Positions 1,943-56,000 of a DNA stretch of 64,000 bases are shown here, piece by piece. Each line of letters opens with the position of its first letter. Position 1 is the first letter of the stretch. The notes beneath the pieces were generated by a model, which worked only from the letters and a program-made list of their open reading frames with translations, searched no databases and had not been told where the DNA came from. The position numbers and the translations under genes are program-made. The stretch is taken from IMG/VR virus record IMGVR_UViG_3300024255_000011, positions 32,001 through 96,000 of that record, one strand, 5' to 3'. Origin of the DNA: a virus.

Positions 1943-2860
1943 TCAACCGCCAGCAGAGTTGTTTGCGGTAAGAGAAGCACTGATAACTGCTTCAAGTCTA
2001 ACAGCCAATTCTTCTACAGTCTCACCTACAACCACATTAGCCAATTCAGCTGCGAGTTGAGTGAGAGTCAGTCTGTAATCATCATTGGTTGCACTTGCTT
2101 TACCCAGAGCACTGTTGGCTGTGGTCTGAGCTTGACCCACATCAGTTTGAAGTGTTGCAATGTCATCTTCGTTAGTTGCAACTCTTGTAGTAAGACCTAC
2201 TACGTCATTTGACAATCCAGTGATATCATCATTGATACCATTAACACCATTTACAGCTGTCTCAAGATCAGTGATTCTGTTTTCGTGACCATTAACCTGA
2301 GTACCAAGGGCCGCAAATTCTCCAGTAATGTGAGTGTTGAGTTGCTGTCCAACATTAGCAATTGCTGCAGTGTTCTGAGCGATTGATGCAGTGTTAGTAG
2401 TACCTACACCGATAACATTGGTTACTTGAGATTCAATCTTTTGAAGAACCTGAAGGTTATTTCTGTTGATGCCATCGTTGAGGAAGGATCCTACAGCGAA
2501 GTCACCCGTGAAATAATTTGAACGACCTTTGGGTACACCAGTAAGTGCAACCAAGTTCACGATGTCAGTTGCATTCTGAGCGATGCCTGCTTCGTGATCT
2601 GCTTCAGTTTCAGCAATTAGATCGTTTACTTCTTGCTTGGTGTAAAGATTAGTATTGGCACTGGTTACTTCAACACTCACTTCACCAGTGAATCTGACAC
2701 TACCATTAAAGGTCAAGTTGTCATCAGTGATTCCACTGACGAGCTCTGTGTAGCTAAGTCTGGACGTTGTCTGGTTCTCATCATTAACAATAAACTGATC
2801 AAGACCAGTAAGTCTGTCAGCAGTTAGAACCGGAAGATTTGAAATCTTAATGCTTGCCAT
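1943..2860 (-). CDS. Coiled-coil fibre protein (whisker/fibritin-like position) with N-terminal IKISxLP domain
   Basis: MASIKISNLP...DQFIVND...TSRLSY N-terminus and long heptad stretches; paralogous to 2909..4141 (shared YxKQEV and HExRITDLET motifs); immediately upstream of gp13, where T4 has wac. Confidence 0.7.
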   Translation of the reverse strand: MASIKISNLPVLTADRLTGLDQFIVNDENQTTSRLSYTELVSGITDDNLTFNGSVRFTGEVSVEVTSANTNLYTKQEVNDLIAETEADHEAGIAQNATDIVNLVALTGVPKGRSNYFTGDFAVGSFLNDGINRNNLQVLQKIESQVTNVIGVGTTNTASIAQNTAAIANVGQQLNTHITGEFAALGTQVNGHENRITDLETAVNGVNGINDDITGLSNDVVGLTTRVATNEDDIATLQTDVGQAQTTANSALGKASATNDDYRLTLTQLAAELANVVVGETVEELAVRLEAVISASLTANNSAGG

Positions 2861-2886
2861 TGTTTTGTTGGAAGTTTACTTTTACT

Positions 2887-2893
2887 TATTTAT
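2887..2893 (-). promoter_or_regulatory. Late promoter (ATAAATA)
   Basis: Intergenic, about 27 nt upstream of the ATG at 2860. Confidence 0.7.
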
Positions 2894-2908
2894 TGTTTAG
2901 TTGGTTTA

Positions 2909-4141
2909 TTATGCACTAAACATGTTAGTTCTGATCAGTCCATCAGAAAGTTGACCAGTTGGACTTTGAACATAAGTCCCACCAATGGATACACCATTAG
3001 CCGCGGCGTCAGTTTCAGTGATGTACGCTCTGGGATATCCCAAGAGTTGGAATATAAATGTTCTGTCATACAAAGCTGGGTTGTCATCATTGAAACTTAG
3101 GATTCGTTCATACCTACCAGCTGCAGATACATACCCTGCGTTTTGAGTGGCAGAGTAAGCGAACTCACCTAGATTGTAATCGAAATCCGTTAATCCAGGG
3201 AAATCAGTCTTATCATTATAATAAACTGGAACTCTGTTTGCTACAAGTGGGGGAGCTGTAATTTTAGTAGTGAATACTGGATTATCAATTGGTGCCTTAG
3301 TATCAACCTCAGTTACAATTTCTTGTAGCACCTTTTTAGTTGGTTGATTATCCTGAACAAATCCAGTGCCAGTAAAAGCACCCATGTCCTGTGACAATGT
3401 AGGCATTCCACTCTGAATAATCAGAGCGTTAACCTTATCACTATTAGTAGTAGAAAGAGTTTCTAAGTCAGTGATTCTGACTTCATGATTATCAACATCA
3501 GTTCTAAGGTTAAAGATTTGGAGTTCGTGTTGATTGATTCTGACCTCATGGTCCACAGTCAGCAGTTGTAACTCATTAACATCTTTAACAAGACCACTGG
3601 TTACATCACCAACTGTTACTTCTAGTTGCTCAACCCTGAAAGTCAAACTTGAAAGTTCCCCTTCCAAATCATTGATGCTATCTGAACTCCCTCCAATAAG
3701 AGTTCTGTTATCACTACAGTAAAGTTCTAAGTCAGTTAGTGCAGCTCTGGTGGTTGCTTCAGTTCTAATGATTCCCTTAGGAAAATCTCTGAAGTAAATT
3801 GACTTTTCAGTTTCTCCAGTCAATTCAATGAGAGGTACAATCCTTTCGTCTTGGAAAGTGTCGTAATCTTCCAACTGAGAAACGATATTATCTACTTCTT
3901 GTTTGTTGTAAGTTTCATCTTTGTTATAGAAATCACCTGTTACATTATCACCAAGATTCACAGAACCATTGAATTGAATGTCTCCACTGAATTCAATGTC
4001 TCTTTCACCAATCCCTAAAACAATTTGCCTAAAACTTACCTTGGAAGTAGTGATGTCACCGTCATTAACGATGTAATAATCATCATCTGTGATTCTATCT
4101 ACCTTGATTTCAGGCAGAGAACTAATCCTTATGGTAGCCAT
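2909..4141 (-). CDS. Coiled-coil fibre protein with N-terminal IRISxLP domain
   Basis: MATIRISSLPEI...DYYIVND...TSKVSF, heptad repeats, the fibre motif KAPIDNPVFT, and a C-terminal 'AAANGVSIGGTY' cap. Confidence 0.7.
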   Translation of the reverse strand: MATIRISSLPEIKVDRITDDDYYIVNDGDITTSKVSFRQIVLGIGERDIEFSGDIQFNGSVNLGDNVTGDFYNKDETYNKQEVDNIVSQLEDYDTFQDERIVPLIELTGETEKSIYFRDFPKGIIRTEATTRAALTDLELYCSDNRTLIGGSSDSINDLEGELSSLTFRVEQLEVTVGDVTSGLVKDVNELQLLTVDHEVRINQHELQIFNLRTDVDNHEVRITDLETLSTTNSDKVNALIIQSGMPTLSQDMGAFTGTGFVQDNQPTKKVLQEIVTEVDTKAPIDNPVFTTKITAPPLVANRVPVYYNDKTDFPGLTDFDYNLGEFAYSATQNAGYVSAAGRYERILSFNDDNPALYDRTFIFQLLGYPRAYITETDAAANGVSIGGTYVQSPTGQLSDGLIRTNMFSA

Positions 4142-4238: not shown

Positions 4239-6983
4239 TTAGAGGGCAGCCACTCTAGACTGGAAGTCTGCGAAGTCAGAAGAGGCGGCAACCACAGCCT
4301 GGAAGGCGGTGAGTGTAATCGTCTCAGATGCCAACTTAGCATCCAACTGAGTCTGGATGTTAGAAGTAACACCATCAACATAATTCAGTTCTTCAGGTGT
4401 TGCAGTAACAGCTGTGTTGCTGTCTGCAGCCAGGACAGGAAGACAACCAGACTGATTAGGCAGTTTGATTGTTCTGTCGGCGTCAGGATCAACAATGGTC
4501 AGTGTGGTCTCATTGCTGTCAGCAGTAGCACCTTCGAATACGATGGCGTTAGACGCCTGCATCGTCACAGTGTCAACTGTGGTGGTGGTTCCCTGAACAA
4601 CCAGATCAACACAAGTCAGTTGGTTGATACCAGAGATAGACTTACCAGCATCCAAGACCATAGCCTTAGAAGCTTCAGCTGTACCAACAGCTGCAACGTC
4701 TGTGTAGTTGAGCTCAGCAGTGGTGGCGGTTACTCCATCCAACAGGTTGAGTTCAGTTGCAGTTGAGGTAACACCATCAAGGATGTTAAGTTCTGCTGCA
4801 GTTGAGGTAACACCGTCAAGGATGTTGAGTTCAGCTGCAGTTGAAGTAACAGCAGTTGAACCAAGGGTAAGTGTTCCACCAACAACCAGGTTAGTAGAGA
4901 AGTGGCCATCACCACCAACGTCCAGGGTGTAGTCTGGATCAGTCATGTTGATGGCGAACCTCTGTCTCTCATCAAAGTGAGCGACAACTTGTCCGTTTGC
5001 CAGAACTGTCAGAACTTCTTTGCTGGAGCTGACGTAAGAAGGTGAGATCTTCCACACCACGTTCATATCAGAGTGGTCTGCTCTGCTCAGAATCAGAGAC
5101 ACTGCAGAACCATCACTCTTTCTAAGAGTAAGATCACCTGTCAGAACACCACCAAGTTTTGACAATCTCGACTCAGTGTCAGTCTCCAGTTCTTGGAGAA
5201 GAGCACGGACTGTGGTGTTGTCACTAAGTGTAGAACCAGTAAAGGTTCCCATCGCAGTAGCACTCTCAGCAGATGTACCGAGAGCGGTATAGATGTTGGT
5301 ACGAGCGGTATCGATTTCAGTTTCCACTGAATCAATACGAACACCCAGAGCAGCGTCAGCTGCATCAGCGTCCGTCTCATTCTGATCCACATCAGCCTGT
5401 ACGACAGCAACAGCTGCCAACATTGCTGTGTTCTCAGCGGCAATAGCGGCGTCAGCGTCCGTCTCATTCTGATCAACATCAGCCTGTACGACAGCAACAG
5501 CTGCCAACATTGCTGTGTTCTCTGCTGTTACCAGACCAGCTGCAGTAACTTCGTTGGCATCAACATCTGCTTGCACAGCTGCGATGGCAGCGTCTGCGTC
5601 AATCTCGTTCTGGTTTACATCAGACTGGACAGCAGCGATGCTGTTAGTGATGGTAGTGGAGAAGTTAGCGTCATCACCAATAGCGGCGGCCAACTCATTC
5701 AGAGTGTCAAGAGCACCTGGTGAGGAATCAATCAGGTTAGCAACTGCAGTATCCACATAAGCAGTGGTTGCAATCTGGGTAGTACCAGCACCCTGTGAAG
5801 CTGTGGGTGATGTAGGTGTTCCTGTAAGAGCAGGAGAAGCAAGAGGTGCTTTCAGTGCCAGTGAGGCAATAGAGGCTGCTTCGTTAGCATCCACATCAGA
5901 CTGAACTGCTGCAATGGCAGCGTCTGCATCTGATTCATTCTGATCCACATCTGCCTGAACAGCTGCCACAGCTGCAGTACGAGCAGTAGTTTCTGCTGCA
6001 ATAGCTACATCAGCGTCGGATTCATTCTGATCTACATCAGCCTGGATGGCGTTACGAGCAGCCAGTGCGGCGGCTTCGTTAGCATCTACGTCTGCTTGAA
6101 CTGCGGCAATCGCAGTGTCGGCATCGGCTTCGTTCTGATCTACATCTGCTTGCACAGCAGCAACTGCGGTGGCAGTTGTGGGGTCAGCTTCCAGTGTGTT
6201 CAGACGACCGTCGTAGGCGTTGATGTTGGTGAAGCTAGTCAGAATGACACCAGCACCATCAATAACGTCCGTTTGGTTGTCGAGCAGGAGGTCTCCCTCG
6301 ATTTCTACACGACCACCTGCAGCAGGGTGAATTGCGATGTTGTTTCCAACTTCGATACTCGTTCCACGAACAGCGTTCTTGACACTGGTGATGTTGGACT
6401 GAATGTCGACAACCGCTTTGCGGGCGACCTCGTTGGCGTCAACATCTGCCTGGACAGCTGCGATAGCAATGTCGGCATCTGATTCGTTCTGATCTACATC
6501 AGCCTGAACTGCTGCAATAGCTGCATCAGCATCTGATTCATTCTGATCTACATCAGCCTGAATTGCATTCTCAGCAGCAACTGCACGACCAGACTCAGCG
6601 TTGATGAGTGCTGTGTTAGCAGCTGTAGATGCGGCAGCGTCAGTGAAATAGTTGGGGTTGTCATTCAGTGCATCACTGATTTCCCCAAGTGTGTCGAGAA
6701 CTTCAGGAGCGTCACCCACAAGGGCTCCGATCTGAGCATCGATGTAAGCTCTGGTCGCTGCGTCAGCGAGGTCCAGAGAGGATGTGGACTCGTTATAAAC
6801 AAGGAGTCCCTGGTCACCTGTCAAACAGGCGTTGAGTTTCCCTGCAACAGGGGCCCAGGAAGAGTCTGCGAGTGCAGCGTCTGCCTCTGCCTTGGTTGCA
6901 AAGAATCGATTGATGTAATTATACTCGTCACCGGCACCTTTCAAAGCAAGGTTAGAGGTGGAGAGTTGCGTAAGTGTTGCCAT
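4239..6983 (-). CDS. Long Ala-rich fibre protein
   Basis: Tail-fibre motifs (APEVLDTLGEISDALNDNPN; KAPLASPALTGTPTSPT...QIATTAYV...PGALDTLNELAAAIGDDANF), many 18-aa AVQADVDQNESDADAAIA coiled-coil repeats and 13-aa VTSTAAELNILDG repeats. Confidence 0.85.
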   Translation of the reverse strand: MATLTQLSTSNLALKGAGDEYNYINRFFATKAEADAALADSSWAPVAGKLNACLTGDQGLLVYNESTSSLDLADAATRAYIDAQIGALVGDAPEVLDTLGEISDALNDNPNYFTDAAASTAANTALINAESGRAVAAENAIQADVDQNESDADAAIAAVQADVDQNESDADIAIAAVQADVDANEVARKAVVDIQSNITSVKNAVRGTSIEVGNNIAIHPAAGGRVEIEGDLLLDNQTDVIDGAGVILTSFTNINAYDGRLNTLEADPTTATAVAAVQADVDQNEADADTAIAAVQADVDANEAAALAARNAIQADVDQNESDADVAIAAETTARTAAVAAVQADVDQNESDADAAIAAVQSDVDANEAASIASLALKAPLASPALTGTPTSPTASQGAGTTQIATTAYVDTAVANLIDSSPGALDTLNELAAAIGDDANFSTTITNSIAAVQSDVNQNEIDADAAIAAVQADVDANEVTAAGLVTAENTAMLAAVAVVQADVDQNETDADAAIAAENTAMLAAVAVVQADVDQNETDADAADAALGVRIDSVETEIDTARTNIYTALGTSAESATAMGTFTGSTLSDNTTVRALLQELETDTESRLSKLGGVLTGDLTLRKSDGSAVSLILSRADHSDMNVVWKISPSYVSSSKEVLTVLANGQVVAHFDERQRFAINMTDPDYTLDVGGDGHFSTNLVVGGTLTLGSTAVTSTAAELNILDGVTSTAAELNILDGVTSTATELNLLDGVTATTAELNYTDVAAVGTAEASKAMVLDAGKSISGINQLTCVDLVVQGTTTTVDTVTMQASNAIVFEGATADSNETTLTIVDPDADRTIKLPNQSGCLPVLAADSNTAVTATPEELNYVDGVTSNIQTQLDAKLASETITLTAFQAVVAASSDFADFQSRVAAL
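4700..4860 (-). repeat. Four tandem 39-bp / 13-aa repeats (VTSTAAELNILDG)
   Basis: Visible in both protein and DNA. Confidence 0.9.
5365..5522. repeat. Near-perfect 71-bp direct repeat with an 87-bp (29-aa) period
   Basis: 5365-5435 and 5452-5522 differ at one position; encodes ENTAMLAAVAVVQADVDQNETDAD twice. Confidence 0.85.
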
Positions 6984-7769
6984 TTAGCCTCCGAAAAGTG
7001 TGTCGGCGTAGAGATAACCTTCGGCCAAACTGGCCTCCAGATTCCTTGCCTCAATGTGTGCAATGTAATCAGTCAATTGAGACTGAAGATTTGTGATGAT
7101 TTGTGGGTCATCTCCCAGTGCCTGTGCCAACTCATCAATAGAGTTAAGAGTTTCAGGTGCAATGTCAATGTCAAGGTTACCGATAGTCGTCTGCAAAGCA
7201 GAGATGTCAGTTGCATTCTGTGTGACATTATCAGACAACGACCCAAGGGAGGTTGTAAGACTCTGATTAACAGCGTCCACTGCTGCCTGGGTAGTTGGAT
7301 CGACTTCAAGAGCGGAAACTCTTGTGTTAATGTCTGTGATGAGATTGGGGTTATCACCCATCGCATCTGCTAACTCACTTAAGGAGTCGAGAGTGTCAGG
7401 TGCTCCACCAATGACCTCTGAAACCTTAGTGTCAACATAGGTTTTGGTGACTGGATCAATTTCCAGTACATCAATCCTGTCACTAAGTGCAGTGTCTCCT
7501 ATATTAAATGACGAAGTATTACCATCTATAGATGCCCGTAAGGCAACTCTAACGGTTTCAATAAGGGTTTCTGCATCTGTTCTGTTCTGAGAAACAATGC
7601 TTTCGAGACTTGACAGTGCACTTGCCGTGTCCGTAATAACATTAGACTTCAGGTTGTTATAACTAATCTTTCGAGATGTTCCTGTTTCCATGTCTGAGAC
7701 AAGGAACAGATCAACATCCGTAAGATCGGTTAGTGAGTTTAGCTCACTAATCTTTATGGATGCTGCCAT
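6984..7769 (-). CDS. Short fibre protein with N-terminal IKISEL domain
   Basis: MAASIKISELNSL...DLFLVSD...SRKISY; two 'APxTLxSxxELAxAxGDxP' fibre repeats; its stop codon abuts the next ATG in frame. Confidence 0.8.
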   Translation of the reverse strand: MAASIKISELNSLTDLTDVDLFLVSDMETGTSRKISYNNLKSNVITDTASALSSLESIVSQNRTDAETLIETVRVALRASIDGNTSSFNIGDTALSDRIDVLEIDPVTKTYVDTKVSEVIGGAPDTLDSLSELADAMGDNPNLITDINTRVSALEVDPTTQAAVDAVNQSLTTSLGSLSDNVTQNATDISALQTTIGNLDIDIAPETLNSIDELAQALGDDPQIITNLQSQLTDYIAHIEARNLEASLAEGYLYADTLFGG

Positions 7770-8161: not shown

Positions 8162-8686
8162 TTAATCGTACTGTTCTACTTCAATGGGTACGTTACGATG
8201 TTCTAGAATAAACAACTCATTAGATTCTGAGTATATATTGGCTAGAGTATCAGAAGATTCAATGAAGTCTGTATTGTCTTCAGGTATGATTGACATACCA
8301 AATTCTTCAGTAGTAAGTTTAAAGGAAACCCCATCTTGTCTTAATTCAAAGAATAGATCTACTTCATCAACAACAAAACCAGTAGTGTAAGAAACACCCG
8401 TATCATATACGGTAGAGTCATGTTGATATGGATATACAGGCCTTATTGTGTTATCAACATACCTTGCTTCCCATAGCATATTCTCATAATCACTACACAA
8501 AAAAGTGGCGGTTGGACCAGGGTATCCATCAGTCCTTGTAAAGTTAACTGGATTGCAATCTACATCATTTGAGTTATAGTCACCACACCAGTCATCATAA
8601 GTGTTACCATAAGCGTCTGTTCTATTGACACTGATTGGTTGTGGTGAGACGGGATTGCCATCAACGTCGCGTTTTACGTAAGCCAT
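8162..8686 (-). CDS. Acidic virion structural/hypothetical protein
   Basis: N-terminal 'YVKRDVDGNPVSPQP' motif repeated internally (DVDCNPV); C-terminal acidic 'LTTEE/IESSD/IYSESNELFILE' motifs; TAATG overlap with the upstream gene. Confidence 0.7.
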   Translation of the reverse strand: MAYVKRDVDGNPVSPQPISVNRTDAYGNTYDDWCGDYNSNDVDCNPVNFTRTDGYPGPTATFLCSDYENMLWEARYVDNTIRPVYPYQHDSTVYDTGVSYTTGFVVDEVDLFFELRQDGVSFKLTTEEFGMSIIPEDNTDFIESSDTLANIYSESNELFILEHRNVPIEVEQYD

Positions 8687-9948
8687 TAGTCGTCAGTAAA
8701 AACTGTTGATTTAAATTCTTCAAATGTTGTTGATGTTTCCAGTGCGTTGAACAGTGATACTCCTATAAAAGATCCTTCTGCTGCTTCATTAGCAATTGAC
8801 TCTACTCTTGTAATGTCATTAGAAGTGGCAATTCGTGATCTTCCTTTAAATCCAGTTTCAGGATCCTCATATCCATTATATGCCTGCGCCCCATCCTTTA
8901 GAGTAACACTGTCTTTAAGTAAATCATTTGAAGATGAAGCTTGATAGATTACTGATTCCAGAAATTGAATTCTTTGGAGAAGTTGTGCGTTTAGATCTTT
9001 CTGAGAAGAAATAAGAGAAGATGTATATGTACCATTCTCATCAATAATATTGCCATAACTTACATCAAGATTTACCGAAGTTTCGGTTGGTTCTGGATTA
9101 TATGACCTGACATATGTTAGTTCTCCAGTATTAATGTTATATCCTAGACCACCACCATGATTTTGTGTGCCATCATTCTCCTGAATGACCACATCAATCT
9201 CTGGGACGACTTCTAATGCCCAAGACTTGACATCTGATTGAAGACTTTCTGCAGAAAACTTGACCGGTCCTCCACTTTCAACTTCCAGTACACTCTGTAC
9301 ATTGGATTCGATATGAACACCACCTCTGGTCTTATTCGCAAGGATGTGAACTCCCTCTCCTACTTTGAACTTATCTCCACCGAACTCAGTGTCTGAGTCA
9401 AAAGTTTTAGCCCCGACAAATGATCCTATAACTTGACTGGCTTCAACTTTAATATCGACAAAGTTACCAGTACTTTCACCACCCTCTAAAGGAGGTTCAA
9501 CATTCATCAAAGTTTCATGATATCCAAATGGGAAGTCAGTTAAAAGTCCAGAGGTAATTGAGTATCCGCCCTCACCTGAGTACAATGAAGATGCAGTAAC
9601 TCCACCCACTTCATTAATTGAGTCTACCTTTATTACTTGATCTCCACCATCAACTCTTACCAATTCACCCACCAAATATCCAAATCCGCTGGCCACAACA
9701 TACATTTCTAGGATGACGCCTGTCCTAACTTTGATGTTAACAGTCAATCCCTGACCTACACTATCTGTGTCTAGGGTACTATTGTCATCCTGAAGAACTG
9801 AGTTCTCAGGGGTGGTTCCGACAGAATAGGCCTCACCAGTGTCATTTACCAGATCAGAGAAGTTGATATTGTCTTTTAGTAAAGTAGATACAAACCCAGT
9901 TTCGGGTTTGTATACCACTAATAGATCTGAAGATTGCAGTATTGCCAT
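8686..9948 (-). CDS. Fibre-associated structural protein
   Basis: N-terminal MAILQSSDLLVVYKP; internal 'GxGYxVG' beta modules; C-terminal 'TSTTFEEFKSTV' cap resembling that of the 914-aa fibre. Confidence 0.7.
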   Translation of the reverse strand: MAILQSSDLLVVYKPETGFVSTLLKDNINFSDLVNDTGEAYSVGTTPENSVLQDDNSTLDTDSVGQGLTVNIKVRTGVILEMYVVASGFGYLVGELVRVDGGDQVIKVDSINEVGGVTASSLYSGEGGYSITSGLLTDFPFGYHETLMNVEPPLEGGESTGNFVDIKVEASQVIGSFVGAKTFDSDTEFGGDKFKVGEGVHILANKTRGGVHIESNVQSVLEVESGGPVKFSAESLQSDVKSWALEVVPEIDVVIQENDGTQNHGGGLGYNINTGELTYVRSYNPEPTETSVNLDVSYGNIIDENGTYTSSLISSQKDLNAQLLQRIQFLESVIYQASSSNDLLKDSVTLKDGAQAYNGYEDPETGFKGRSRIATSNDITRVESIANEAAEGSFIGVSLFNALETSTTFEEFKSTVFTDD

Positions 9949-9967: not shown

Positions 9968-11593
9968 TCAGTAGTTGGGGAGAAGGTAGAAGTTGTTGGG
10001 TAGGAAGAAATCAACAGTTTGATGAGAGTTGGCCACCAAACTTGGCATCTTAGTAGATACCTCATCAACCCTGTTGTGTTTCTGACTTAGTGAGGTTGAC
10101 AACTCAGTGTTTGAGACGATTGATGTCAATCCAGATGCACCTATGTCAGCAGTCTTACCGCTGATTGAAATTCTCCCTTCAAGTTCCTCAACTTTGAGTG
10201 CACTGTATGTTCTGCCTGTTACAGTATTGAGTGTACTTGTAGTTACAATTTCAGGAATATCGTCATCAGTCAAGCTATCAAGTTTCTGTTTGTCTGATGC
10301 AGACATAAACCCACTATAACTTGAGTATATGTCTAGGTCACCAGTATCAGTCAGGATTACTTTTGCGTCCTTGATTGAGATGTTGTATACATTTTCATCA
10401 GTACTACTTCGTTGAGTAATTATTGAATAGTGAGGATTGCCATATCCCTCATTATTACCTGGAACATAAACAGGTACTTGAATACTTGTAATTTGTGAGT
10501 TGGAAACGCTGTCCTTGATAAGAACAAACTCATTGTATCTAAGAGTATCAATTATTTTTTCAGTCCAAATGATCTTATCATTTTTGGTTACTGTAATCGT
10601 ACCAGTTGCTGCAGTTTCGTCAATCTTTACACCGACTATTGCTTCTCCTACATTACCAATTGTTTCGTTTACAATAAAGAGTTTGTCACCATCTTTATAA
10701 GCAATATGACTTGAATTCGTTGAGATAGTTGCATTAACAACCTCACCTTGAACCATTGTCAAGTCCAGTCGCATTCCACTGCCTTGGATATTGTTGCGAC
10801 GAGGTATTGTTTCAACACCGTAACTGTAACTTTCAAGAGAAGAACTAGCAAAGTAATATCCACCAACTAATTCTCGATCATTTGATTCTCCGTCTTCATT
10901 CTGAACAAACTCAAAATCTGTTACTGCTCCAACGGAACTAACATCCGTGATCTTAACATAAACTCGATCACCTACTTCAGGTGTCTTCTGTCTAAACTCA
11001 ATAATATCATCTACTTCATAATTAAATCCACCCTGACTAATTACTGCGTCAGTAGTCCTAATGAATCCATCGATAACTGAAACCGTTAACAAAAACCCAT
11101 AAGATTTGGAGGCGTCTGTTAGATTTCTCTGTCCAGTTTCAACTCCCTCACCAAAGGTTGGGATTGTACCATTCAGTCCTCTGTAGTTATTTCCACCTTC
11201 AAACAATTCAACACTGGTAAATTCATCATCAGAAACACCTTTCCACTCAGATGTCTTCAGAGTGAGTTTGCCATCTGGATGTTCAGCTAGGTCTGGATTG
11301 ACAATATAAAAGTCACCAGTGTTGAGATTCTGTGTGTCTGCGGGTGGTTGTAGGTCTTCTGTTACCTCTCCAACAAAGTTTAGTGTGTTGGGGAAGTTAA
11401 CATCAAGGTATCCCGTTTTCTCGTCATAGACGAAGTTTTTAGATGGGAATACTTTACCTGCCACTCCACTGATCTGATCTCCCTGTTTGGCATTGGGTAC
11501 TGTCAGACCTTCAACTACTGTATTTCTCTTAGCTGTAAAATACGAGTCACCCCTTTTAACAATAAACTGATCGGTATCTTGAATAGTGGACAT
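9968..11593 (-). CDS. Fibre-associated structural protein
   Basis: N-terminal MSTIQDTDQFIVKRG; 'LNFVG...GDFYIV' domain; the fibre motif GFMSASDKQKLD; C-terminal NFYLLPNY. Confidence 0.75.
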   Translation of the reverse strand: MSTIQDTDQFIVKRGDSYFTAKRNTVVEGLTVPNAKQGDQISGVAGKVFPSKNFVYDEKTGYLDVNFPNTLNFVGEVTEDLQPPADTQNLNTGDFYIVNPDLAEHPDGKLTLKTSEWKGVSDDEFTSVELFEGGNNYRGLNGTIPTFGEGVETGQRNLTDASKSYGFLLTVSVIDGFIRTTDAVISQGGFNYEVDDIIEFRQKTPEVGDRVYVKITDVSSVGAVTDFEFVQNEDGESNDRELVGGYYFASSSLESYSYGVETIPRRNNIQGSGMRLDLTMVQGEVVNATISTNSSHIAYKDGDKLFIVNETIGNVGEAIVGVKIDETAATGTITVTKNDKIIWTEKIIDTLRYNEFVLIKDSVSNSQITSIQVPVYVPGNNEGYGNPHYSIITQRSSTDENVYNISIKDAKVILTDTGDLDIYSSYSGFMSASDKQKLDSLTDDDIPEIVTTSTLNTVTGRTYSALKVEELEGRISISGKTADIGASGLTSIVSNTELSTSLSQKHNRVDEVSTKMPSLVANSHQTVDFFLPNNFYLLPNY

Positions 11594-11974: not shown

Positions 11975-12024
11975 GACAAGATCCATTGTGAACATGTTAG
12001 ACAAGATCCATTGTGAACATGTTA
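11975..12024. repeat. Perfect 25-bp tandem duplication
   Basis: gacaagatccattgtgaacatgtta at 11975-11999 and 12000-12024, spanning the stop codon of 11997..13199. Confidence 0.95.
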
Positions 12025-46700: not shown

Positions 46701-49700
46701 GTGGTACACCAAATCCTTTTCTGTGTCTGTTTGGTGGAGCAACATATCTCTTTTTGCCATCAGGGAAGTCAGATAACATCTCATCAATTGAACACCAAGC
46801 AGTTACATCGATGTCATCAAAGAAAGCATAATATCTGGTGTTGGGTTTCAGTCTCGTGGCGGTGAAATCGATACCACCAGATCTCATTGTCTCTTGTAAC
46901 TGAACATCTGTTACCCTGTCACCATAAGAAGTTCTCTTGATTGATGAAGTGTTAACATTAAATGTTGTTTGTGTTTGACTTCTAACCTGTTGTGTGGACT
47001 CAGTGGTTTCTGTAATGTTTACAGTTGCTCTACCATTTTGAGATTGTCTGGTGGATGAAGTAGAGGAAATTCCTGTGGTTTCCCAATCACCCCAAACAGT
47101 TCCCAATCCAGATGTACGCATTTCATCAGTCAGATTAACCATTGCATCAAACAATGTGTTATCTTCAATGACCAAGTTTGGAAGTCTGGTAACATCTCTA
47201 AACGTATCAATTTCAGGATCCAGTACTAGATTACCTTTGTAGGTAAACACAGAATAAGGTTGGAGATTTACTGTTCCAGTCGCAAATGGGTTCGTTGTGA
47301 ACACACTTTGCTTATAAGGTACAGTAATGATACCATTATTATTAATGTAATTACTTCCTTGACGTTGAAGATCTGTTTGATTCTTCTCTTCCAACTCCAC
47401 TTGATCTGTGAAGTGTGGTGCTCTCAGGTGTGAGAACTTGGGATCAATACTATTTCTGTAAGGAATTGTGCCAACATCACCCTTAGAGTGATTAGCAAAT
47501 GTATCAACAACAATACCATTCTTAAATCTATCAAGACCTGTTACTGCATCCCTTACACTCATATTGAGTGCACCCTGCTCTAACAGTGACAAGGTAACCA
47601 CCTGGTGGATGTTATCAACCTTTCTGTCAATGGCAGCAATGTCTGCCATTGTATAACGTCTATAATTAAACTTCTTGACGTGAATGTCTTCTACTGAGAA
47701 TGTATAAGCAGGAAGGTAAAGGTCATACAACCTGATTGCAGTTGTGATGTCTGAAGGACGACGGGGACTGATTGCTGCATTACCCTCCAAGAGGATCATC
47801 TTACCATTCTTATCCAAGAAGAGTGAATCAATTCTTGGTAAGTAGTACTCAAGATCAGATTGGAATGGAGTGAATGGAATGGGTAGTCTTGGAACAAATC
47901 CATTACCACCATTAGAAGTGTCTCTATAGTTTATAGCATTGAAAGAGGACACACCATCAACAATGGTTGGAATCTTACTTTCTTTAGAGTTCGCACCCTC
48001 AGCAAGAGTGTTAACAATTGGTCTGAAGTCCACACAATCCCTGAGTTCAACAACTGTGCCTTCTTTATCAGAGAGTTGAAGAGGAAGGTTTCTGCCTCTT
48101 ACAAAGGTTGGGATGTCCTTATAAGGAACTCCTAAGTCATGTGTATATGAGTCAACACTGAAGAAGTCACCATCACCAGAATGTTCAAAGTACTGAAGAT
48201 CAACATAAAGAGTATCCACTGCTGGTGGCATACCAGGTTTTAGATAGATTCTTGAAATGTCATAGAAATTATCTCTCTGACCATCATCTAACAGATAGTT
48301 TACAGTAACATCAACTGCTCCAGGTTCACCTGGTGCTGCTCCCATTGTAATTTGATTGATCTTATGTACATCAGCAATTCCCAGTGATAACAAGGAGTTT
48401 GAAGGAATCTTAGAGATCTCAGTTAAGAGGTCTGATGTTTGTGGTTCAATTTCAATAAGTGTATTCTTATCTAACTTTTGTTTTGCAATTGCATCAATAA
48501 CTTGTGTTGGGGCAAGAACCTTGATGGTACAGTTTGATGGTACAGGTTCTGAAAGTTCAAACTGTGCTTGTCTGTTATCATCCTGGTTGAGAATGACATT
48601 GGTAACAACAATGCTTCTACCAACAGGTGTTACAGATGATCCACCAGTGTTCCTAATGATGGCAATGTTAACTCCAGAGGGGTCAGTAACAAACCTTTCA
48701 TTATCTCTGTCAGTGGACAATGTGATGCTGGTAGCACCTTGAACAGCACTCTCAACAAACTGTCTATAAACTCTATAATTGATTCTTGTGGTGATTGGAT
48801 CACTTTGGAGACTTGCTACAGTCTTAACTGGGAGACTAAAGACCAAATCCTGATCTTCATTCCCTTTACTCTTCACTCTAATTCTTTGGACAGTCTTACC
48901 TGTGACTTTATCAGGAAGTGCAGTGGTAAAGTAAATGGTGGATTGTGATCTCTGCTCACCATAACCAACAGGTTTGGTTGCAAACAACACCAGTTTAGAA
49001 ACTGATTTACCTGTGTCATCTACAAATGTTACAACATCATTGGCAATCAATTCTTCTGATGCATCACCTGAGAAGTTATCACATGTGATAAAGTTCTGTC
49101 CTGCAACACCAGAGAAGAGTGACCTGTCTGCAACATCATAAACTTCCGCATCAACATTGTTCTGAACTGAAATGTCAGCAGAGAACTTATCAAGGTTACT
49201 TGCAGTTAGGTTTGAGTAGATCGACTTGGTTTTGGTAATCGTGTTACTGATTTTACCTGGTGCAGTAATAGCATAACCCTTTGCTTTTGAGTTGTTTGTC
49301 TCAAGAACATAGTTTACTCTCTCATTCAGGATACTACCTTCTGGGTAGGGGAAGTTATAAAGTTTCTTACGTCCTTCTGATGTTGGGACAAACTTGTTTA
49401 GGAATGCATTGTAAGTGAAGTGTGTTCCAATCTCAAGAGTTGTTTTTGCTCCAATGGCAGACACTTTAATTTCAGTATCAGTTCCCAAGTCACCATTAGT
49501 GGTTCCTGCTGTGTAGAACTGGAAGTCCACAACCTCATTAGATTTTATAAGTCTCGAAATCTTTCTATTTGATGTTCCTTCAACAATTTGTACGAGGTTC
49601 TCACCATTCTGGAATCCACCAATTACATTGGATACCAACAAAAAGTCCTTAGACGATCCTGGTTCTACTGTTGCAAAGGATTGGGATTGCTGACCAAACA

Positions 49701-51456
49701 CAAGTGATCCTTCACTCCAGTCATACTGGTTGCCATCTGAAGTTTCATCATCAATCAGAGCAAGTTCTGTGTAATAAACAGAGGAGATGAAACCCATCTT
49801 ATGAGTTGAGTTATATCCATAATATCCATCCTGTTGATCAACATACTGCTTAGGAATGAAGTAACGTGGGTGCATAACACCTGATGGTCTGGGTTTGACC
49901 ACGTTAGCAATCATAATGGTTGCATTACCAATAGGTTGACCTCTCACAAAGTCTTCTTCCTCAACACCTGTCAATACACAACTGTTGAAATCATTATGGA
50001 TGATGTTGTAATTATTCATCCCAAGGAAACCATCCAGATCACCAATCTCAACATCAGCGACGATGTGAATGGTCATCTGAGGTTCTTTACCATAATAAAG
50101 TGGTCTGGATCCTGCATCAGTGGGATCTACTTTAGACTGACCAACATAACCATCAGTAAAGTTTCTGTAAAGAGTTAATGTGTCAAAAGCAGCTGTTGAC
50201 GCATTTTGAGAGATGTTCTGTAAACTTGGAAGACCATGTACATTCGTCAGAGTGAGGTTATAACCCTCTGTAATCTGAGTGAAAATGTTTGGCATGAAAT
50301 TCAGATTTCTTGCCTTATTACCATAAACATAAACTGGGTTATTGTAACCACACTCATAACCCTGAACATATGCCAAACCTGGATCTACTCTGATGGCATA
50401 AAGCCCATCTGCAGCAGTAAAGGTCAGAGGTCTCTCACTTCCACTTCTAGGGATTGGAGGATATTCACCAGTATCAGGGTCTGCGTCAAACACCCCATCA
50501 ACTATTTCAGTATTGCAATACTCAAGTGGTTTGATTGCAAAGTCATTTACAATGTAATCTCCTGATTCAGAGAATGTTCTCTTTGCAAGAATATCATACA
50601 ACCAGTCCCACTTTACTGAGGTTCCAGTCTTACCGAGAATCTCACCATTCTGAATAGTTGCAAGATGAATGAAGTCGGGAGCAACTGATTCAAAATCCAG
50701 TTTGCCCAACTTAAGTGTAATTTCTAATCTATCTGCACCAGGTGCAGCGAAGTTTGAATTCCCTTGTGAATTGTCAAGTAATGAAGTGTCTTCACTTGAT
50801 GTAATAAAATCTTCTAATACAAAGAATCCAACCTGATAATATGGGCGAGTTCCGTACTTGTCAAGAGTAATGGTTTGTTTCTCATTACGAACCATGAAAC
50901 CATTAACATAGTAAATGCCTTCATTAACAGTAAACAGTGTACCCTTACCAACTGGAGCAGAGTCGATGGGCTTACTGACGCCACTAACTCCAACCTTAGC
51001 TGTGTAAGCCTGTGGGGTATCTGTTTCTAATGTCTCTTGCTCTAAAAACTGAGTATATTCGTTAGTATTACCTGAATCCTCATATGTCACATAGAAGGTA
51101 AGGTCGTCATCATCCGTGGATTCAATTGCATATGTAACCCTTCCCTTCACTCCAGAAGTAACACCAATGAAGTTATATCCCACATACTCCTGAGGGTCTG
51201 AACCATTAGTGATGGTCGATACTCTCACGTAGGAATGTGGGTTCTCAAGAGAAAACTCACCAGGGACAACATTGTCCCCATCTTTCATAAAGTGACTGGA
51301 CAGTGACTGAATCTGATCCTGTAGGATTGATTGAGTTTGATTTAACTCCCTTGTCTGGATTGGAAACCCAGACTTGTACATAACACGATAAAAGTTCTTT
51401 TTGGGATTCCAATCATCATTATATGGGGGAATATTTAAGTTATGATTAGCAGGCAT
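43702..51456 (-). CDS. Large virion structural protein, VrlC-like/DUF4815 family
   Basis: NLNIPPYNDD...RVMYKSGFPIQTRELNQTQSILQ; AAPGADR; GLDRFKNGIVVDTF; DPIAQTF; GSLFKSQNG..WT.DQ..DMKF; directly downstream of gp8. Confidence 0.9.
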   Translation of the reverse strand: MPANHNLNIPPYNDDWNPKKNFYRVMYKSGFPIQTRELNQTQSILQDQIQSLSSHFMKDGDNVVPGEFSLENPHSYVRVSTITNGSDPQEYVGYNFIGVTSGVKGRVTYAIESTDDDDLTFYVTYEDSGNTNEYTQFLEQETLETDTPQAYTAKVGVSGVSKPIDSAPVGKGTLFTVNEGIYYVNGFMVRNEKQTITLDKYGTRPYYQVGFFVLEDFITSSEDTSLLDNSQGNSNFAAPGADRLEITLKLGKLDFESVAPDFIHLATIQNGEILGKTGTSVKWDWLYDILAKRTFSESGDYIVNDFAIKPLEYCNTEIVDGVFDADPDTGEYPPIPRSGSERPLTFTAADGLYAIRVDPGLAYVQGYECGYNNPVYVYGNKARNLNFMPNIFTQITEGYNLTLTNVHGLPSLQNISQNASTAAFDTLTLYRNFTDGYVGQSKVDPTDAGSRPLYYGKEPQMTIHIVADVEIGDLDGFLGMNNYNIIHNDFNSCVLTGVEEEDFVRGQPIGNATIMIANVVKPRPSGVMHPRYFIPKQYVDQQDGYYGYNSTHKMGFISSVYYTELALIDDETSDGNQYDWSEGSLVFGQQSQSFATVEPGSSKDFLLVSNVIGGFQNGENLVQIVEGTSNRKISRLIKSNEVVDFQFYTAGTTNGDLGTDTEIKVSAIGAKTTLEIGTHFTYNAFLNKFVPTSEGRKKLYNFPYPEGSILNERVNYVLETNNSKAKGYAITAPGKISNTITKTKSIYSNLTASNLDKFSADISVQNNVDAEVYDVADRSLFSGVAGQNFITCDNFSGDASEELIANDVVTFVDDTGKSVSKLVLFATKPVGYGEQRSQSTIYFTTALPDKVTGKTVQRIRVKSKGNEDQDLVFSLPVKTVASLQSDPITTRINYRVYRQFVESAVQGATSITLSTDRDNERFVTDPSGVNIAIIRNTGGSSVTPVGRSIVVTNVILNQDDNRQAQFELSEPVPSNCTIKVLAPTQVIDAIAKQKLDKNTLIEIEPQTSDLLTEISKIPSNSLLSLGIADVHKINQITMGAAPGEPGAVDVTVNYLLDDGQRDNFYDISRIYLKPGMPPAVDTLYVDLQYFEHSGDGDFFSVDSYTHDLGVPYKDIPTFVRGRNLPLQLSDKEGTVVELRDCVDFRPIVNTLAEGANSKESKIPTIVDGVSSFNAINYRDTSNGGNGFVPRLPIPFTPFQSDLEYYLPRIDSLFLDKNGKMILLEGNAAISPRRPSDITTAIRLYDLYLPAYTFSVEDIHVKKFNYRRYTMADIAAIDRKVDNIHQVVTLSLLEQGALNMSVRDAVTGLDRFKNGIVVDTFANHSKGDVGTIPYRNSIDPKFSHLRAPHFTDQVELEEKNQTDLQRQGSNYINNNGIITVPYKQSVFTTNPFATGTVNLQPYSVFTYKGNLVLDPEIDTFRDVTRLPNLVIEDNTLFDAMVNLTDEMRTSGLGTVWGDWETTGISSTSSTRQSQNGRATVNITETTESTQQVRSQTQTTFNVNTSSIKRTSYGDRVTDVQLQETMRSGGIDFTATRLKPNTRYYAFFDDIDVTAWCSIDEMLSDFPDGKKRYVAPPNRHRKGFGVPLISDGDGVLQGEFIIPNGRPPVPGTQFNGRMSSIQYQTSGPTRSFATGSRLLRFTTSPTNTKNEQDLEGYAEKMFTSSGIMLDKQETIVATRLPDIQSRTTQTDQQSRTLTSTGISDVDVDVRGPDVIERIIIRDPEPVHQDPIAQTFLVDDTNPDGIFLTELDAFFSSKDNVHGVHAFIVTTDGAIPTTTILPHSHVTKSPDTILRVRCELPTDVDLSVLQNGFELNGTESGATGVIKSNVTFESPTANPGANVQNKVYNVILSNYDGDFIPGEIVTCPNLVGIKAEPTFTICNDEVEITRVDLTNMGTKYDDTTVVEFSIPELPGGRTATGVVKVAPINDNVMDPSMYVPGHDGQVYEIILTDPGSGYTRVPQVTIIGEGGNAEAGCRVKDSTPGVIMGVATSDDGSVPTTFKFSSPVYLMGNTEYAVVLTSPNSLEYRSYVSKLGEDIVGTNTRVTRNAVLGSLFKSQNGALWTEDQTQDMKFTLRRADFEPNVSANIILQNAPLFDKVLELDSIETSSLDVSRSSRIFGMNPRVLKVYQYNHGLSVGDYCAISGVTGTGTDGDSVGGIPIEEINNLHEVLDVDLHHFSIMVSTPSTLTLKGGGSNIRCSYGRPYEVINAYTGLVVYSSSLVGATNRATQTVGLSPVMLDSEGKEIKYNQNNNYILDDIVPIQLMESYYYNEPMQVANYLNELKYNDGIHMRGEKSIETTIRMSSVDNKVSPVFDIQRTNMTLVRNLIDYPKPLTSSLGATTKVITFNERVDLKVGEQLDIDNISTKVAAVEGNKKSIMVYTEPGDKIRRSSVFSKSELNDIGIKQVVNRQSQVFSPETEVVGSVFAKWTSKLFVFENMCDGIELKLSSVYYSADSIKVYYRPRNIGFDADITSIPWIPFNPNQVLPDEQRRVTEDNEIIWPTDPDYSQTLPLYRTPGLPNNVNLIKPRSTDSVDPAMIQANEWQSLTWSAQDLAKFDAISIKIVMTSNNPALAPLIDDMQLVVSE

Positions 51457-52999: not shown

Positions 53000-53024
53000 T
53001 CTATCTCTACTTTTTGTTATTTAT

Positions 53025-56000
53025 TTACAAGAATTGTACTTCATCCACCTTGAAGGTTTGGGTCTTCATGTCATTAACCCTTAGGTCAGCAAACATAATA
53101 AACCCACTTGGATGAATTACTTTCTTGACTGTTGAATCATAAATTGATTTCTCTAAAGGAGAAGAGATAACATAAGAGAACCACTGATAATAATAAGAGT
53201 CTTGGATGACAGCATAAGATTCACTTATCTTAGAAGTATCATCTAAGAAGTCTCCCCTTGGTGAAGAAACTCCATCAACAACAATTCTTGCATCAGATTG
53301 ACCTTCAAGAATAACCATTCCATTGCCACCACGCTCAGTAAACAACATCTCTCCAGATTTCAACTTGCCACTTACATTAGCAAGTGTGATGATTTGATTA
53401 TGTGGCTCATAATCAACAACTGTAGCTGTCACCATATCATAGAAGTCTGTGCCTTGATACGCGGTATCACCAATTTTAAACTCATCAGTTGGATTCAAAA
53501 GAACGACTCTTGTGTGAATCATCAACTCTGGTTTTAGTGATCTGTCAGGAGAAATCTTTCTCCCTGGATCCACAACCTCTAATGACTTAAGTTTACCAAT
53601 GTCTTCTGTTAGTGGCAAATACTTACCTTTACTCTCAACCAAAATCAACTCAGGTTCCACATAATCAGTTCCTGGTTTTACAATTTTGATCTCAACAATG
53701 GCACCATTCTCAACAATTACATCAGCCTCAGCACCATAACCACTCTGTATCAAATCAACAAATATGGCTCTGGGTTTAGAATACCTGTTTCCACCATATT
53801 CAATTTGAACTTCCTTGATGGATGTTCCATCCATAATGATCTTGGTGGTTGCTCTATCAACATACTTTTTATAAAGTCCCTCAATCTTAGGTAATGTTTC
53901 ATACTGATAACCAGGTGAAGTAACTTTTACAAGTGCTGCTTCATTCTGTGGATACTTGGAAGATGTGTAATAAGAAAGATGATCATCTTCTCCCAATGTG
54001 CTTGGTGTGTAGATATTGAACTGATTCTTATCTAAGAACTTAGGCCAGATAATCTTACATGTGTCCTGTCTGTAATGAATGCCACCATATTCAACATTGA
54101 TTTGCTTAATGTAACCACCCTCAGATAATGGAGCAACAATACAATAAGCGTATCCACCAACACCACCATTACCATAGAACCAGATGTAGAAGTTATCTGG
54201 ATAATACTTACCTCTGAAGGTCAGTTCAACATCAATAACTTTACCATCCTCAACAATACCATAACCCTCTGCTGGCTCAACAAAACCAGATTCAACAACT
54301 TCAAAGGTTTTGCCTCTGAGTTCATCATGGACAGTTTCATTGATAATTACCTGGTCACCTGCTCTCTGCATGTGTGGAACTTTAGTCCTGATGGTGTACA
54401 GAGACCTTGTCATGTTAAAGGTAGGAGTACCATCCAACAACTCCTTAATGTATGGGTCACCCCTTCTTACCACTGCTGCAGCAGGTGTTCCACCCTCAGC
54501 AATACTAACAATATAAGCTTCTTCAATGCCACTGGTTCCAGGTGCACCATTGATAAATCTAATCTTGTCATCAGGATAGAAGTGTTTTAGTTGCTCAAAC
54601 CAAATGTAATTCAATCCAAGATACTTCAGAAGTAAGTCATCATCCAAGTCACCAGGTGGGAAGATTGGACCTGGTCTTAGTGGAGGTTTATTTCCATCAC
54701 CACTAGGATCATGTGCAGACACATCAGTTGCATACTTGTTAGGCATGATACCTAATGGGTTGGTAATAATCCACTGAGATTGTCCTCTGGATCTAAACCT
54801 GATGTACATCTTACCTGTTATAGGTGACCACCACATCACACCATCTCTCAATGCTGTACCATCTGGCATCGCTCTTGGTTGAGTCAGTTTTACAATGACA
54901 AAAAGTGATGTTTCATATTGATGTTTCCATGGGTGTTCTCTTTCTGGGGTGTACCAGTTTGGTACATCTGATGCACCTTCACCTGAAGGTGGATGTTCAC
55001 CAGGAATCCAACCATTGGGGTCTGTACATATCCACTGTTCTCCATACCACATGTACAGGAGTGCAGTTTGTGGAGACCACCACATGTCACCATATTGGAG
55101 TGGACCACCACTCTTACGCTCACTTGGTGCCCAGTTAGAAATAGTTGTTAGGAGGGCTTCCTGCTCCTTCTGGATACCTGAGGATCCATTGGGATCATCA
55201 AACCCATGTGACTTATCTAAAGCACCAACAGTTGGGAGAGTGCCAGTTGGTTGAGTACAAACCCATTGCTTGGATCCATCTTCATCAACATACCAGATAA
55301 ACAACCTTCCTGTCTGATTAGAATACCAGAGGTCCCCAGCAACTAATTCCTCAAGTTCTACATTTGGTTCAATAACACCAAAATAAGTTGTGGATCCCAA
55401 TGAAGTCAAAACTCCACTTTCAGTTTTATCTAACTTTTCATCTGCATACAATCTTAATAGGTGTTGGTCATCCTCAGACAGAATCTCCAACATTTCTTCT
55501 GTATTAACATTATAATTCTTAAGAATAATGTTGCCCTGATTATCAATAATGTTTGGAATAAGAATCAGTTGCTTCCTGTTATCTCTGATTGTGTCTCCAT
55601 ATTGTATGAGGTTTTTGGATGTAATAATGATAGTAACATCACTGGTTTCCACATCATAATCCCACACAACGCCTTTTGCATAAGATGAGGAAATGATTCC
55701 AGTACCTCTAACAAACACATGTGACCTGTCACCAATAAACTCACTTCCATCTGGATTCAGGAACTGACAGGCATTCAAATTAACAATCTGAATGTGTGAG
55801 ATAACAACAGTTCTAATATCTTCACCCACAGAGTCCTTAACTGGTTCTCCCTTAATGAAAGACACTCTACCTTCTGCACCTGCACCACCAGTGTCATAAT
55901 TATCAACATAAGTGATATCACCAACTTTAGTGGTGTTTGGTAATCCACTCTGTACAACAATCTCAGAAACTGAACCAGATAATGTATCTGAGATCTCAAC

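Follow-up and report, generated by a model that had tools for sequence, protein, structure and literature searches.

The DNA analysed here, referred to below as the window, is a stretch of 64,000 nucleotides (nt) comprising bases 32001-96000 of the 108,850-bp IMG/VR viral contig IMGVR_UViG_3300024255_000011, which is estimated to be 62% complete and derives from an uncultured T4-like myovirus, probably a cyanophage. Comparisons with Pfam and PHROG, and phmmer searches with T4 proteins, reveal in this window the gene order gp25-gp6-gp7-gp8-DUF4815-[26 genes]-gp13-gp14, and the 26-gene block between the gene for a VrlC-like DUF4815 protein and gp13 is the subject of the present work. The block (1943-43693, 41.8 kb) consists of minus-strand genes, viz. 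23 open reading frames (ORFs) of at least 89 amino acids (aa) and three smaller ORFs (15936-16157, 37835-38041 and 43487-43693) that are kept in a relative, G001, described below. An earlier note on this DNA had counted about 25 genes, in agreement with our count, and had extended the region to position 55400, which falls inside gp7 (53025-59213). Genes are named by the letter g and their lower window coordinate (e.g. g1943 for 1943..2860), the genes of interest all lying on the minus strand, and their characteristics are summarized in Table 1.

We consider it probable that this block is a conserved late-gene set of a T4-type myovirus resembling the Kyanoviridae, and that it specifies the fibre apparatus and outer baseplate from the position that genes 9-12 and wac occupy in T4. 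Its products are predicted to include at least a dozen trimeric fibre or adhesin proteins (coiled-coil, collagen-like, beta-helical and cysteine-rich, with giants of 2266 and 3007 aa) together with small proteins of 68-123 aa, and four of the genes (g4239, g6984, g25204 and g42141) match tail-fibre PHROGs. The nearest cultured phages are the Kyanoviridae Synechococcus phages S-B68, S-H34, S-N03 and S-CRM01, with which gp8 shares only 39-43% identity; megablast of both window halves against cultured phages gave no match, and neither did tblastn with g2909. Because of this low gp8 identity and the lack of any match at the DNA level, the host is assigned from the relatives.

Conservation and organisation of the block

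A locus search of IMG/VR with a narrow alignment recovered one useful relative, UViG_3300024581_003413 (G001), whose VrlC protein is 84% identical to that of the window phage. All 26 block genes are present in G001 in the same order, with identities ranging from 29 to 85%, the genes adjoining VrlC being the best conserved and the distal fibres strongly diverged. A common core is also found in the VrlC-gp13 region of the Makaravirus phages (Kyanoviridae) S-H34, S-N03 and S-B68, viz. a small helical protein, a collar fibre, a 94-aa two-ended protein, a 136-aa protein, and fibres headed by the IxISxLP and FPxxP modules described in the next section; in S-H34 this region covers about 9.8 kb and 11 genes, the window block being about four times larger. 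The earlier note had described the block as accessory. The synteny of 26 of 26 genes in G001 and the presence of a core subset in S-H34 show that description to be wrong, and the block is hence an expanded but stable feature of its lineage. Close homologues of block proteins also occur on a 192-kb Joint Genome Institute (JGI) contig, and related-locus searches of IMG/VR with g9968, g13199 and g38050 found no relatives.

Between the window phage and G001, the N-terminal 40 residues of the block proteins are more conserved than their bodies (66 vs. 53% identity, Wilcoxon p=0.003), whereas the last 25 residues, at 49%, are not. Shaft lengths differ markedly (261 vs. 371 aa for g6984, 914 vs. 1481 for g4239, and 762 vs. 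1015 for g38050), and the C-terminal ends of g4239 and g38050 have been exchanged for other recurrent types in G001, the N-termini being unchanged. The last 25 aa of g38050 are 16% identical to those of its orthologue and go from a plug-like to a hairpin-like end, with the next gene unchanged. Fixed N-termini combined with variable distal parts is the classic pattern of receptor-binding proteins.

The box MTAAATAA occurs at 19 sites in the window, from 1881 to 62863, all of them on the coding (minus) strand about 20-28 nt before start codons, where it often overlaps the preceding stop codon. Only 6.1 occurrences are expected on both strands, and none of 100 shuffles reached 19. The box is probably the late promoter of this phage group. 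It splits the block into at least 14 units, in several of which the gene of a small protein precedes that of a large one, the stop codon of the first overlapping the start codon of the second. Its strict T4 form, TATAAATA, has only two occurrences.

Two further observations arose from the comparison with relatives. Between g8162 and g6984, a gap of 392 nt contains a 70-aa ORF (7949-8161, plus strand), the sole opposite-strand gene in the block, which is kept in G001 (L003:2782-3003, minus strand); an extra same-strand ORF of 201 aa is found there (L003:2175-2780, minus strand) that is absent from the window. In S-H34, the protein annotated as "baseplate wedge tail fiber connector" (gp9; MT162467.2 35710-37215, L002:25711-27216) has an IxISxLP N-terminus, and the annotation looks doubtful, as the protein resembles the block fibres and not T4 gp9.

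Terminal modules, shafts and the proposed split of the IxISxLP domain

An N-terminal domain of about 45 residues bearing the motif IxISxLP is present on five block genes (g1943, g2909, g6984, g38050 and g40355), and in leave-one-out hmmsearch comparisons the omitted gene was still the top match in each case, with E-values between 1e-8 and 1e-11 except for g40355 (0.028). A truncated form of the domain stands at the N-terminus of three others (g13199, g9968 and g8686). Six genes carry a different N-terminal unit, FPxxP (g42141, g41847, g29854, g27089, g25204 and the 73-aa ORF 15936-16157), with leave-one-out E-values of 3e-8 to 2e-3 for the first five. The GDLW hairpin units and the FPxxP unit are members of one family. 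A profile derived solely from the units inside the collar-fibre proteins matches g31017, g29854, g29177 and g28617, and matches gp7 three times (residues 1292-1318, 1375-1395 and 1457-1482, with E-values of 3.6e-9, 1e-4 and 1e-4). In an AlphaFold2 (AF2) model of g42141, the four tandem units are small three-stranded meanders on a string. The leave-one-out and collar-family profiles thus bear out the three kinds of module that had been described in the earlier note, which had also listed four types of shaft, all of them present: coiled coils, a collagen-like G-X-Y run at residues 43-84 of g25204, the bactofilin-like beta-helix identified by Pfam in g38050, and the 137 cysteines with DUF7107 repeats of g31017. 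The C-terminal coiled coils (g1943, g28617, g29177 and g31017) and G.LY/W caps (g25204, g27089, g13199 and g6984) that it reported are likewise found, the caps being retained in the G001 orthologues, and an additional recurrent end, an F..F[KQ] tail, is shared by g4239 and g8686. Within g31017, positions 32600-34300 form a long array of short four-cysteine modules that show up as the DNA repeat families D2, D3, D5 and D6; this array matches Pfam DUF7107, EB and Dickkopf-type modules, and its composition is unusual for a phage structural protein.

Among 1.84 billion proteins, the IxISxLP profile identified 317 clusters (at 50% identity). In nearly all of the best 150 of these 317 the domain begins at residue 1, and the proteins headed by it range from 52 to 1666 aa, with at least six types of C-terminal end and unrelated bodies; some metagenomic proteins join the N-terminal domain to plug-like C-terminal ends and others to C-terminal ends resembling its second half. 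PDB sequence searches with the IxISxLP and FPxxP profiles gave only chance or kelch-motif matches, and Foldseek with the g1943 model gave only generic coiled coils. No DNA-level repeats were found between the N-terminal modules of different genes, the only repeats being intragenic, and the end-modules are therefore old protein modules rather than recent copies. The same absence rules out the idea that the conserved N-termini are DNA-level recombination linkers. Equating the FPxxP unit with the foldon, and the IxISxLP motif with the wac N-terminus, was also considered and dropped, the profiles being not significant against the T4 proteins.

The earlier note had further proposed a split socket and plug, and this proposal was examined with socket and plug matrices trained only on examples outside the window, with which 102 ORFs were scored. 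The N-termini of g13199 (13.4), g8686 and g9968 gave the top three non-training socket scores; among the C-termini only that of g11593 stands out (8.3, the top non-training value), and the proposal is thus only partly confirmed. When the C-terminus of g11593 is joined in silico to the N-terminus of g9968, the product matches the intact-domain profile with an E-value of 4e-4; half-domain hidden Markov models hold too little information for plugs and sockets. The 73-aa protein, g9968, g16184, g38050, g40355 and g29854 are further candidate donors on the basis of motif resemblance and conservation in G001, where these C-terminal motifs are retained although the orthologues share no more than 29-43% identity in their other parts, and the 94-aa S-H34 orthologue of g41847 has an IxISxLP-like motif at its C-terminal end. 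The AF2 model of the g1943 monomer shows an unpaired IKISNLP segment (predicted local distance difference test score, pLDDT, of about 61) beside a confident hairpin and helix, which fits pairing in trans or within the trimer without proving either. A complex model of three copies of g13199 residues 1-110 with three copies of the 73-aa protein scored 0.01 in a run without controls; it gave no verdict and weighs neither way. Outside the window and well away from the baseplate cluster, the contig has additional fibre-like genes (G000:C1:10623-16492 and 96886-98478) whose products combine IxISxLP-type N-termini, truncated or complete, with plug-like C-termini; one of these products, a 530-aa protein, has the module at both ends.

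Table 1. Genes of the block and of its flanks, in window coordinates and from high to low position
Feature	Coordinates	Strand	Evidence or remark
gp25	61105-61554	-	Frame gene (Pfam/PHROG/phmmer vs. T4)
gp6	59210-61072	-	Frame gene (Pfam/PHROG/phmmer vs. T4)
gp7-like baseplate wedge/arm protein, 2062 aa	53025..59213	-	PHROG baseplate wedge subunit 3e-123
gp8-like baseplate wedge protein, 506 aa	51479..52999	-	Pfam Phage-Gp8 1.7e-6; phrog_438 8e-101; phmmer T4 gp8 2.6e-7
VrlC-like DUF4815 protein, 2584 aa, upstream block border	43702..51456	-	Pfam DUF4815 1.1e-47
Conserved 68-aa protein, helix at end; first block gene	43487..43693	-	85% identical in G001; S-H34 counterpart 78 aa
gp12-like collar-domain short fibre, 448 aa	42141..43487	-	FPxxP unit and three GDLW-type units N-terminal; Pfam Collar 1.4e-9
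Two-ended 89-aa protein: FPxxP N-terminus, plug-like C-terminus	41847..42116	-	Leave-one-out E 3e-8
Conserved 123-aa protein	41473..41844	-	phrog_1084 7e-19, phrog_3304 6e-9; identity 73% G001, 40% S-H34
363-aa fibre: IxISxLP N-terminal domain, Gly-rich linker	40355..41446	-	Leave-one-out profile search
762-aa fibre: IxISxLP N-terminus, bactofilin-like beta-helix, 24 Cys	38050..40338	-	Pfam Bactofilin 3.2e-7; leave-one-out E 3e-8
68-aa protein: degenerate IxISxLP-like N-terminus, GD.W hairpin	37835..38041	-	68% identical in G001
2266-aa giant: 137 Cys in tandem modules, two to three GDLW units, C-terminal coiled coil	31017..37817	-	Pfam DUF7107 8e-11
380-aa protein: FPxxP N-terminus, one GDLW unit	29854..30996	-	Profile searches
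224-aa protein: one GDLW-type unit, C-terminal coiled coil	29177..29851	-	Profile search
178-aa protein: two GDLW-type units, C-terminal coiled coil	28617..29153	-	Profile search
507-aa protein: FPxxP N-terminus, C-terminal G.LW/G.LY cap	27089..28612	-	Leave-one-out profile; cap kept in G001
Protein of ~367 aa, no recognised module	25986..27128	-	29% identical in G001
250-aa collagen-like fibre: FPxxP N-terminus, C-terminal G.LY cap	25204..25956	-	Pfam Collagen 5e-6; tail-fibre PHROGs
3007-aa giant: C-terminal ISNL.P motif, kept in relative	16184..25207	-	36% identical overall to 2910-aa G001 orthologue
Two-ended 73-aa protein: FPxxP N-terminus, DFD.QDL C-terminus; directly upstream of g13199	15936..16157	-	Profile search
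910-aa fibre: truncated (second-half) IxISxLP-type N-terminus, coiled coil, C-terminal hairpin cap	13199..15931	-	Socket score 13.4
400-aa protein; start overlaps g13199 stop	11997..13199	-	ORF
Two-ended 117-aa protein, plug C-terminus; stop overlaps g9968 start	11593..11946	-	Plug score 8.3
541-aa protein: truncated N-terminal module, conserved C-terminal LPNNFY.LP motif	9968..11593	-	Outside-trained matrix
420-aa protein: truncated N-terminal module, C-terminal F..F[KQ]-type tail	8686..9948	-	Outside-trained matrix
Conserved 174-aa protein	8162..8686	-	71% identical in G001
261-aa coiled-coil fibre: IxISxLP N-terminus, C-terminal ..LFGG cap	6984..7769	-	Profile; G001 version 371 aa
914-aa coiled-coil tail-fibre-like protein	4239..6983	-	phrog_454 tail fiber 1.9e-33
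410-aa fibre: IxISxLP N-terminus	2909..4141	-	Leave-one-out profile search
305-aa coiled-coil fibre, IxISxLP N-terminus; last before gp13, the T4 wac position	1943..2860	-	AF2 model pLDDT 81.6
gp13 neck protein, 406 aa, downstream block border	643..1863	-	phrog_211 4e-31; phmmer T4 gp13 2.6e-20
gp14	2-643	-	Frame gene (Pfam/PHROG/phmmer vs. T4)

Some characteristics of individual genes in Table 1 deserve mention. The listed GTG start of g25986 overlaps g27089 by 40 nt, and an ATG at residue 14 of this ORF, where the ESM Atlas record also begins, would give a stop/start overlap instead; this ATG is probably the true start. The gp7 gene flanks the block and lies outside it, and its product carries a YHYH insert at residues 751-998 (Pfam YHYH 6.5e-16), has twice the length of T4 gp7, and contains a 117-residue stretch that resembles gp8 (30% identity). 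A PDB sequence search found no relative for gp7 or for g41473. The gp13 protein has an insertion of about 130 residues (residues ~70-200) between its conserved N- and C-terminal parts, that of S-H34 being 280 aa long, and neither strand of the 750 nt upstream of gp25 (61555-62304) has an ORF that reaches 80 aa.

Comparison with the baseplates of T4, phage 812 and other phages

The block lies in the same position as the T4 region of genes 9-12 and wac, from gp8 to gp13, it includes a gp12 homologue, and its coiled-coil fibres adjoin gp13 where wac lies in T4; the region is, however, about seven times larger here, and gp9, gp10, gp11 and fibritin are undetectable. T4 gp12 is a trimeric fibre that is bound to the baseplate via gp10 and gp11. 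The g42141 protein is a homologue of gp12 and a collar fibre of the gp12 type. Its Collar domain (PF07484) occupies residues 309-372 and matches PDB 1ocy, the solved gp12 tip, with an E-value of 1e-4; phmmer with T4 gp12 (E 3e-10) aligns it in three collinear stretches that extend beyond the collar; and Foldseek with its model returns T4 gp12 chains at ranks 1-4 (best 6.7e-6, probability 1.00), the TM-scores being low on account of the extended, monomeric form of the model. More than 150 proteins are related to it, among them fibre proteins of S-B68, S-H34 and S-CRM01. In the whole 108.8-kb contig, Pfam T4_gp9_10_N and GP11 gave no match at E<=1, the GP11 search being weak alone since its control was also silent, and the best E-values of phmmer with T4 gp9, gp10 and gp11 were 0.05-0.26. 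For fibritin (wac), PF07921 (Fibritin_C) is absent from the contig, and phmmer with T4 wac reached an E-value of 0.077, through a coiled coil only. The earlier note had the block replacing gp9-gp12 and wac; its observation of no recognisable gp9, gp10 or gp11 is borne out, but gp12 is present as g42141 and is not replaced. Cyanomyoviruses are known to lack homologues of g10, g11, g12 and wac, and structural proteins of unknown identity have been expected to fill these roles (Virol J 2010, PMC2984593). The undetectability of gp9, gp10, gp11 and wac is thus the already known state of cyanomyoviruses, whereas a detectable gp12 is contrary to the 2010 summary (PMC2984593).

In the baseplate of Staphylococcus phage 812, the arms are formed by a gp7-like arm scaffold and gp8-like arm segments, and each arm holds two tripod trimers as well as the receptor-binding proteins RBP1 and RBP2 and a small coupler; loops of the scaffold dock into crevices of the trimers, and its linkers complete the sheets of the segments (EMBO J 2026, PMC13433997). 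The DUF4815 protein of the window matches a 1152-aa chain of this baseplate (PDB 9euf and 14 further entries, E 1e-22), which, from the contents of the PDB entries, would be the tripod protein. The gp117-gp123 order of phage 812, viz. gp7-like scaffold, gp8-like segment, DUF4815 protein, and receptor-binding proteins with the small coupler between them (PMC13433997), parallels the order gp7-gp8-DUF4815-fibres observed here, and in phage 812, as in the related Listeria phage A511, one scaffold carries several different fibre trimers, an arrangement that is proposed for the window phage as well. The two systems differ in the number of downstream genes (26 here vs. about 5), in the sizes of gp7, gp8 and the DUF4815 protein, which are about two times larger here, in the IxISxLP and FPxxP N-terminal modules, which have no relative among solved structures, and in the host, presumably a Gram-negative bacterium or cyanobacterium here vs. 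a Gram-positive one.

Branched tailspikes of the G7C/CBA120 type have receptor-binding proteins mounted on one another via dedicated N-terminal domains, with gp10-like XD domains and two to four proteins in a complex. The present block differs in having more than 12 proteins and no detectable gp10-like domain, PF07880 being absent and no Pfam match to such an attachment (XD) domain occurring in the block proteins. In the baseplate tripod of Tuc2009, BppU contributes a C-terminal hairpin to a sheet in BppA and so completes it (mBio 2016, PMC4742702), and completion of one protein's domain by the C-terminal strands of another is also the mechanism proposed for the truncated IxISxLP modules; the fold is unrelated, Tuc2009 is a siphophage, and the joint is proposed here only from motifs, gene adjacency and conservation in one relative.

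Interpretation of the block and alternative explanations

The likeliest explanation, which we regard as having good prospects of being correct, is that the block encodes a larger version of the type of multi-fibre outer baseplate seen in phage 812, its fibres having modular N-terminal anchors. The N-terminal modules (IxISxLP, its truncated form and FPxxP) would fix each fibre to the gp7, gp8 or DUF4815 arms or to another fibre, analogous to the way in which the phage 812 arm scaffold holds the tripod and receptor-binding trimers, and variation of the bodies and C-terminal ends would change reach and receptor specificity. In some consecutive pairs, the C-terminus of the upstream protein may supply the first strand of the IxISxLP domain, which would result in end-to-end joints from g11593 to g9968 to g8686 and from the 73-aa protein to g13199. 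Several results weigh against this explanation. Six to eight block genes have no recognised module, and Atlas, Pfam and PHROG searches of them (Atlas including g11997 and g25986) returned nothing; the truncated N-termini match the second-half profile of the intact domain only with E-values of 0.2-0.6, and most plugs are likewise not significant; no pairwise interaction of modules was supported by any computation made; and the switch of the g38050 end next to an unchanged neighbour speaks against a strict neighbour-to-neighbour wiring rule. In addition, virion proteomics or imaging was not found for the phage or any relative, the contig is 62% complete, and the host is known through relatives only.

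An arrangement of parallel and independent fibres, docked directly on the baseplate arms or on the neck in a wac-like manner and sharing modules through common descent of their anchors, without fibre-on-fibre joints, is a possibility to which we give less than even chances. A conserved N-terminal anchor with a variable distal part is the usual design of receptor-binding proteins and is what the two-phage comparison reveals, four trimers lie next to one another on the phage 812 arm scaffold (PMC13433997), the coiled-coil genes g1943, g2909, g4239 and g6984 adjoin gp13 like T4 wac, and a gp7 twice the T4 size has inserted domains that could give extra docking sites. However, a wedge bearing more than 12 different trimers would have to offer many separate docking sites, and the arrangement does not explain why some N-termini are truncated, why the proteins encoded upstream of these have conserved C-terminal motifs, or why there are tiny two-ended proteins. 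It is on these features that a branched combinatorial fibre tree, rather unlikely in our estimate, can draw: short terminal modules would act as specific plug-and-socket joints, and genes could be exchanged without redesign of the attachment. Each of the three small two-ended proteins (89, 73 and 117 aa) has an FPxxP unit and a plug-like C-terminus, and two of the three lie directly upstream of a gene with a truncated N-terminus, their stop and start codons overlapping or nearly so; g9968 combines a truncated N-terminus with a plug-like C-terminus that is conserved, and the next gene also starts with a truncated module; plug motifs persist in orthologues that are otherwise 29-43% identical; metagenomic proteins couple the same N-terminal domain with plug-like or second-half C-terminal ends; and strand completion between baseplate proteins has been solved in Tuc2009 (PMC4742702) and in the phage 812 arm (PMC13433997). 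Against such a tree, only one plug is significant with an independent matrix, half-domain profiles stay at E 0.2-0.6, the end type of g38050 changes in a close relative whose neighbouring gene does not, the five fibres with a complete domain need no donor strand, and no interaction has been demonstrated between any two modules. Of the modular wiring network envisaged in the earlier note, then, the reuse of a few terminal modules on very different bodies stands, and the interactions between modules are not shown. More doubtful still is the specific version in which more than 12 trimeric proteins form a branched tree on 812-like arms, held by split-IxISxLP joints and by FPxxP/GDLW units (the latter also in gp7), with the two-ended proteins as adaptors that translate between joint types.

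The recurrent ends could also be mainly folding or trimerisation devices, and the giants and module-less genes may be capsid or neck decorations, chaperones or non-virion proteins, an explanation that we likewise hold to be somewhat improbable. Trimeric fibres typically nucleate at elements such as G.LY....G.LY caps and terminal coiled coils (cf. the T4 foldon), the GDLW/FPxxP units form tandem series within proteins (three in gp7 and four in g42141) and take the form of small strung beta-meanders in the model, which is shaft-like, and six to eight genes lack a fibre signature. The resemblance of FPxxP to the foldon is nevertheless not significant and Pfam Fibritin_C is absent, the late-promoter-like box is common to all of the genes, which are flanked by baseplate genes on one side and neck genes on the other, and the IxISxLP domain is N-terminal in nearly all of the best 150 of 317 clusters, as is expected for an anchor. 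For the tandem GDLW units, the C-terminal coiled coils and the hairpin caps, a trimerisation or shaft role fits equally well as a connector role, and it is more likely that they are shaft or trimerisation elements than connectors.

The tail-fibre and host-recognition proteins of T4-like cyanophages have been an open question since the first genomes, in which g10, g11, g12, wac and g34-37 were reported as "missing". The block described here provides a parts list for this apparatus, a sequence link to the solved baseplate of phage 812, and a short set of anchor modules whose occurrence can be followed through metagenomes. Were the tree-like wiring true, the lineage could re-wire or swap its fibres gene by gene. 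The proposed joints, if true, would give a handle for predicting which fibres belong together and would explain how these abundant marine and freshwater phages diversify their host range by exchanging bodies and tips on fixed anchors.

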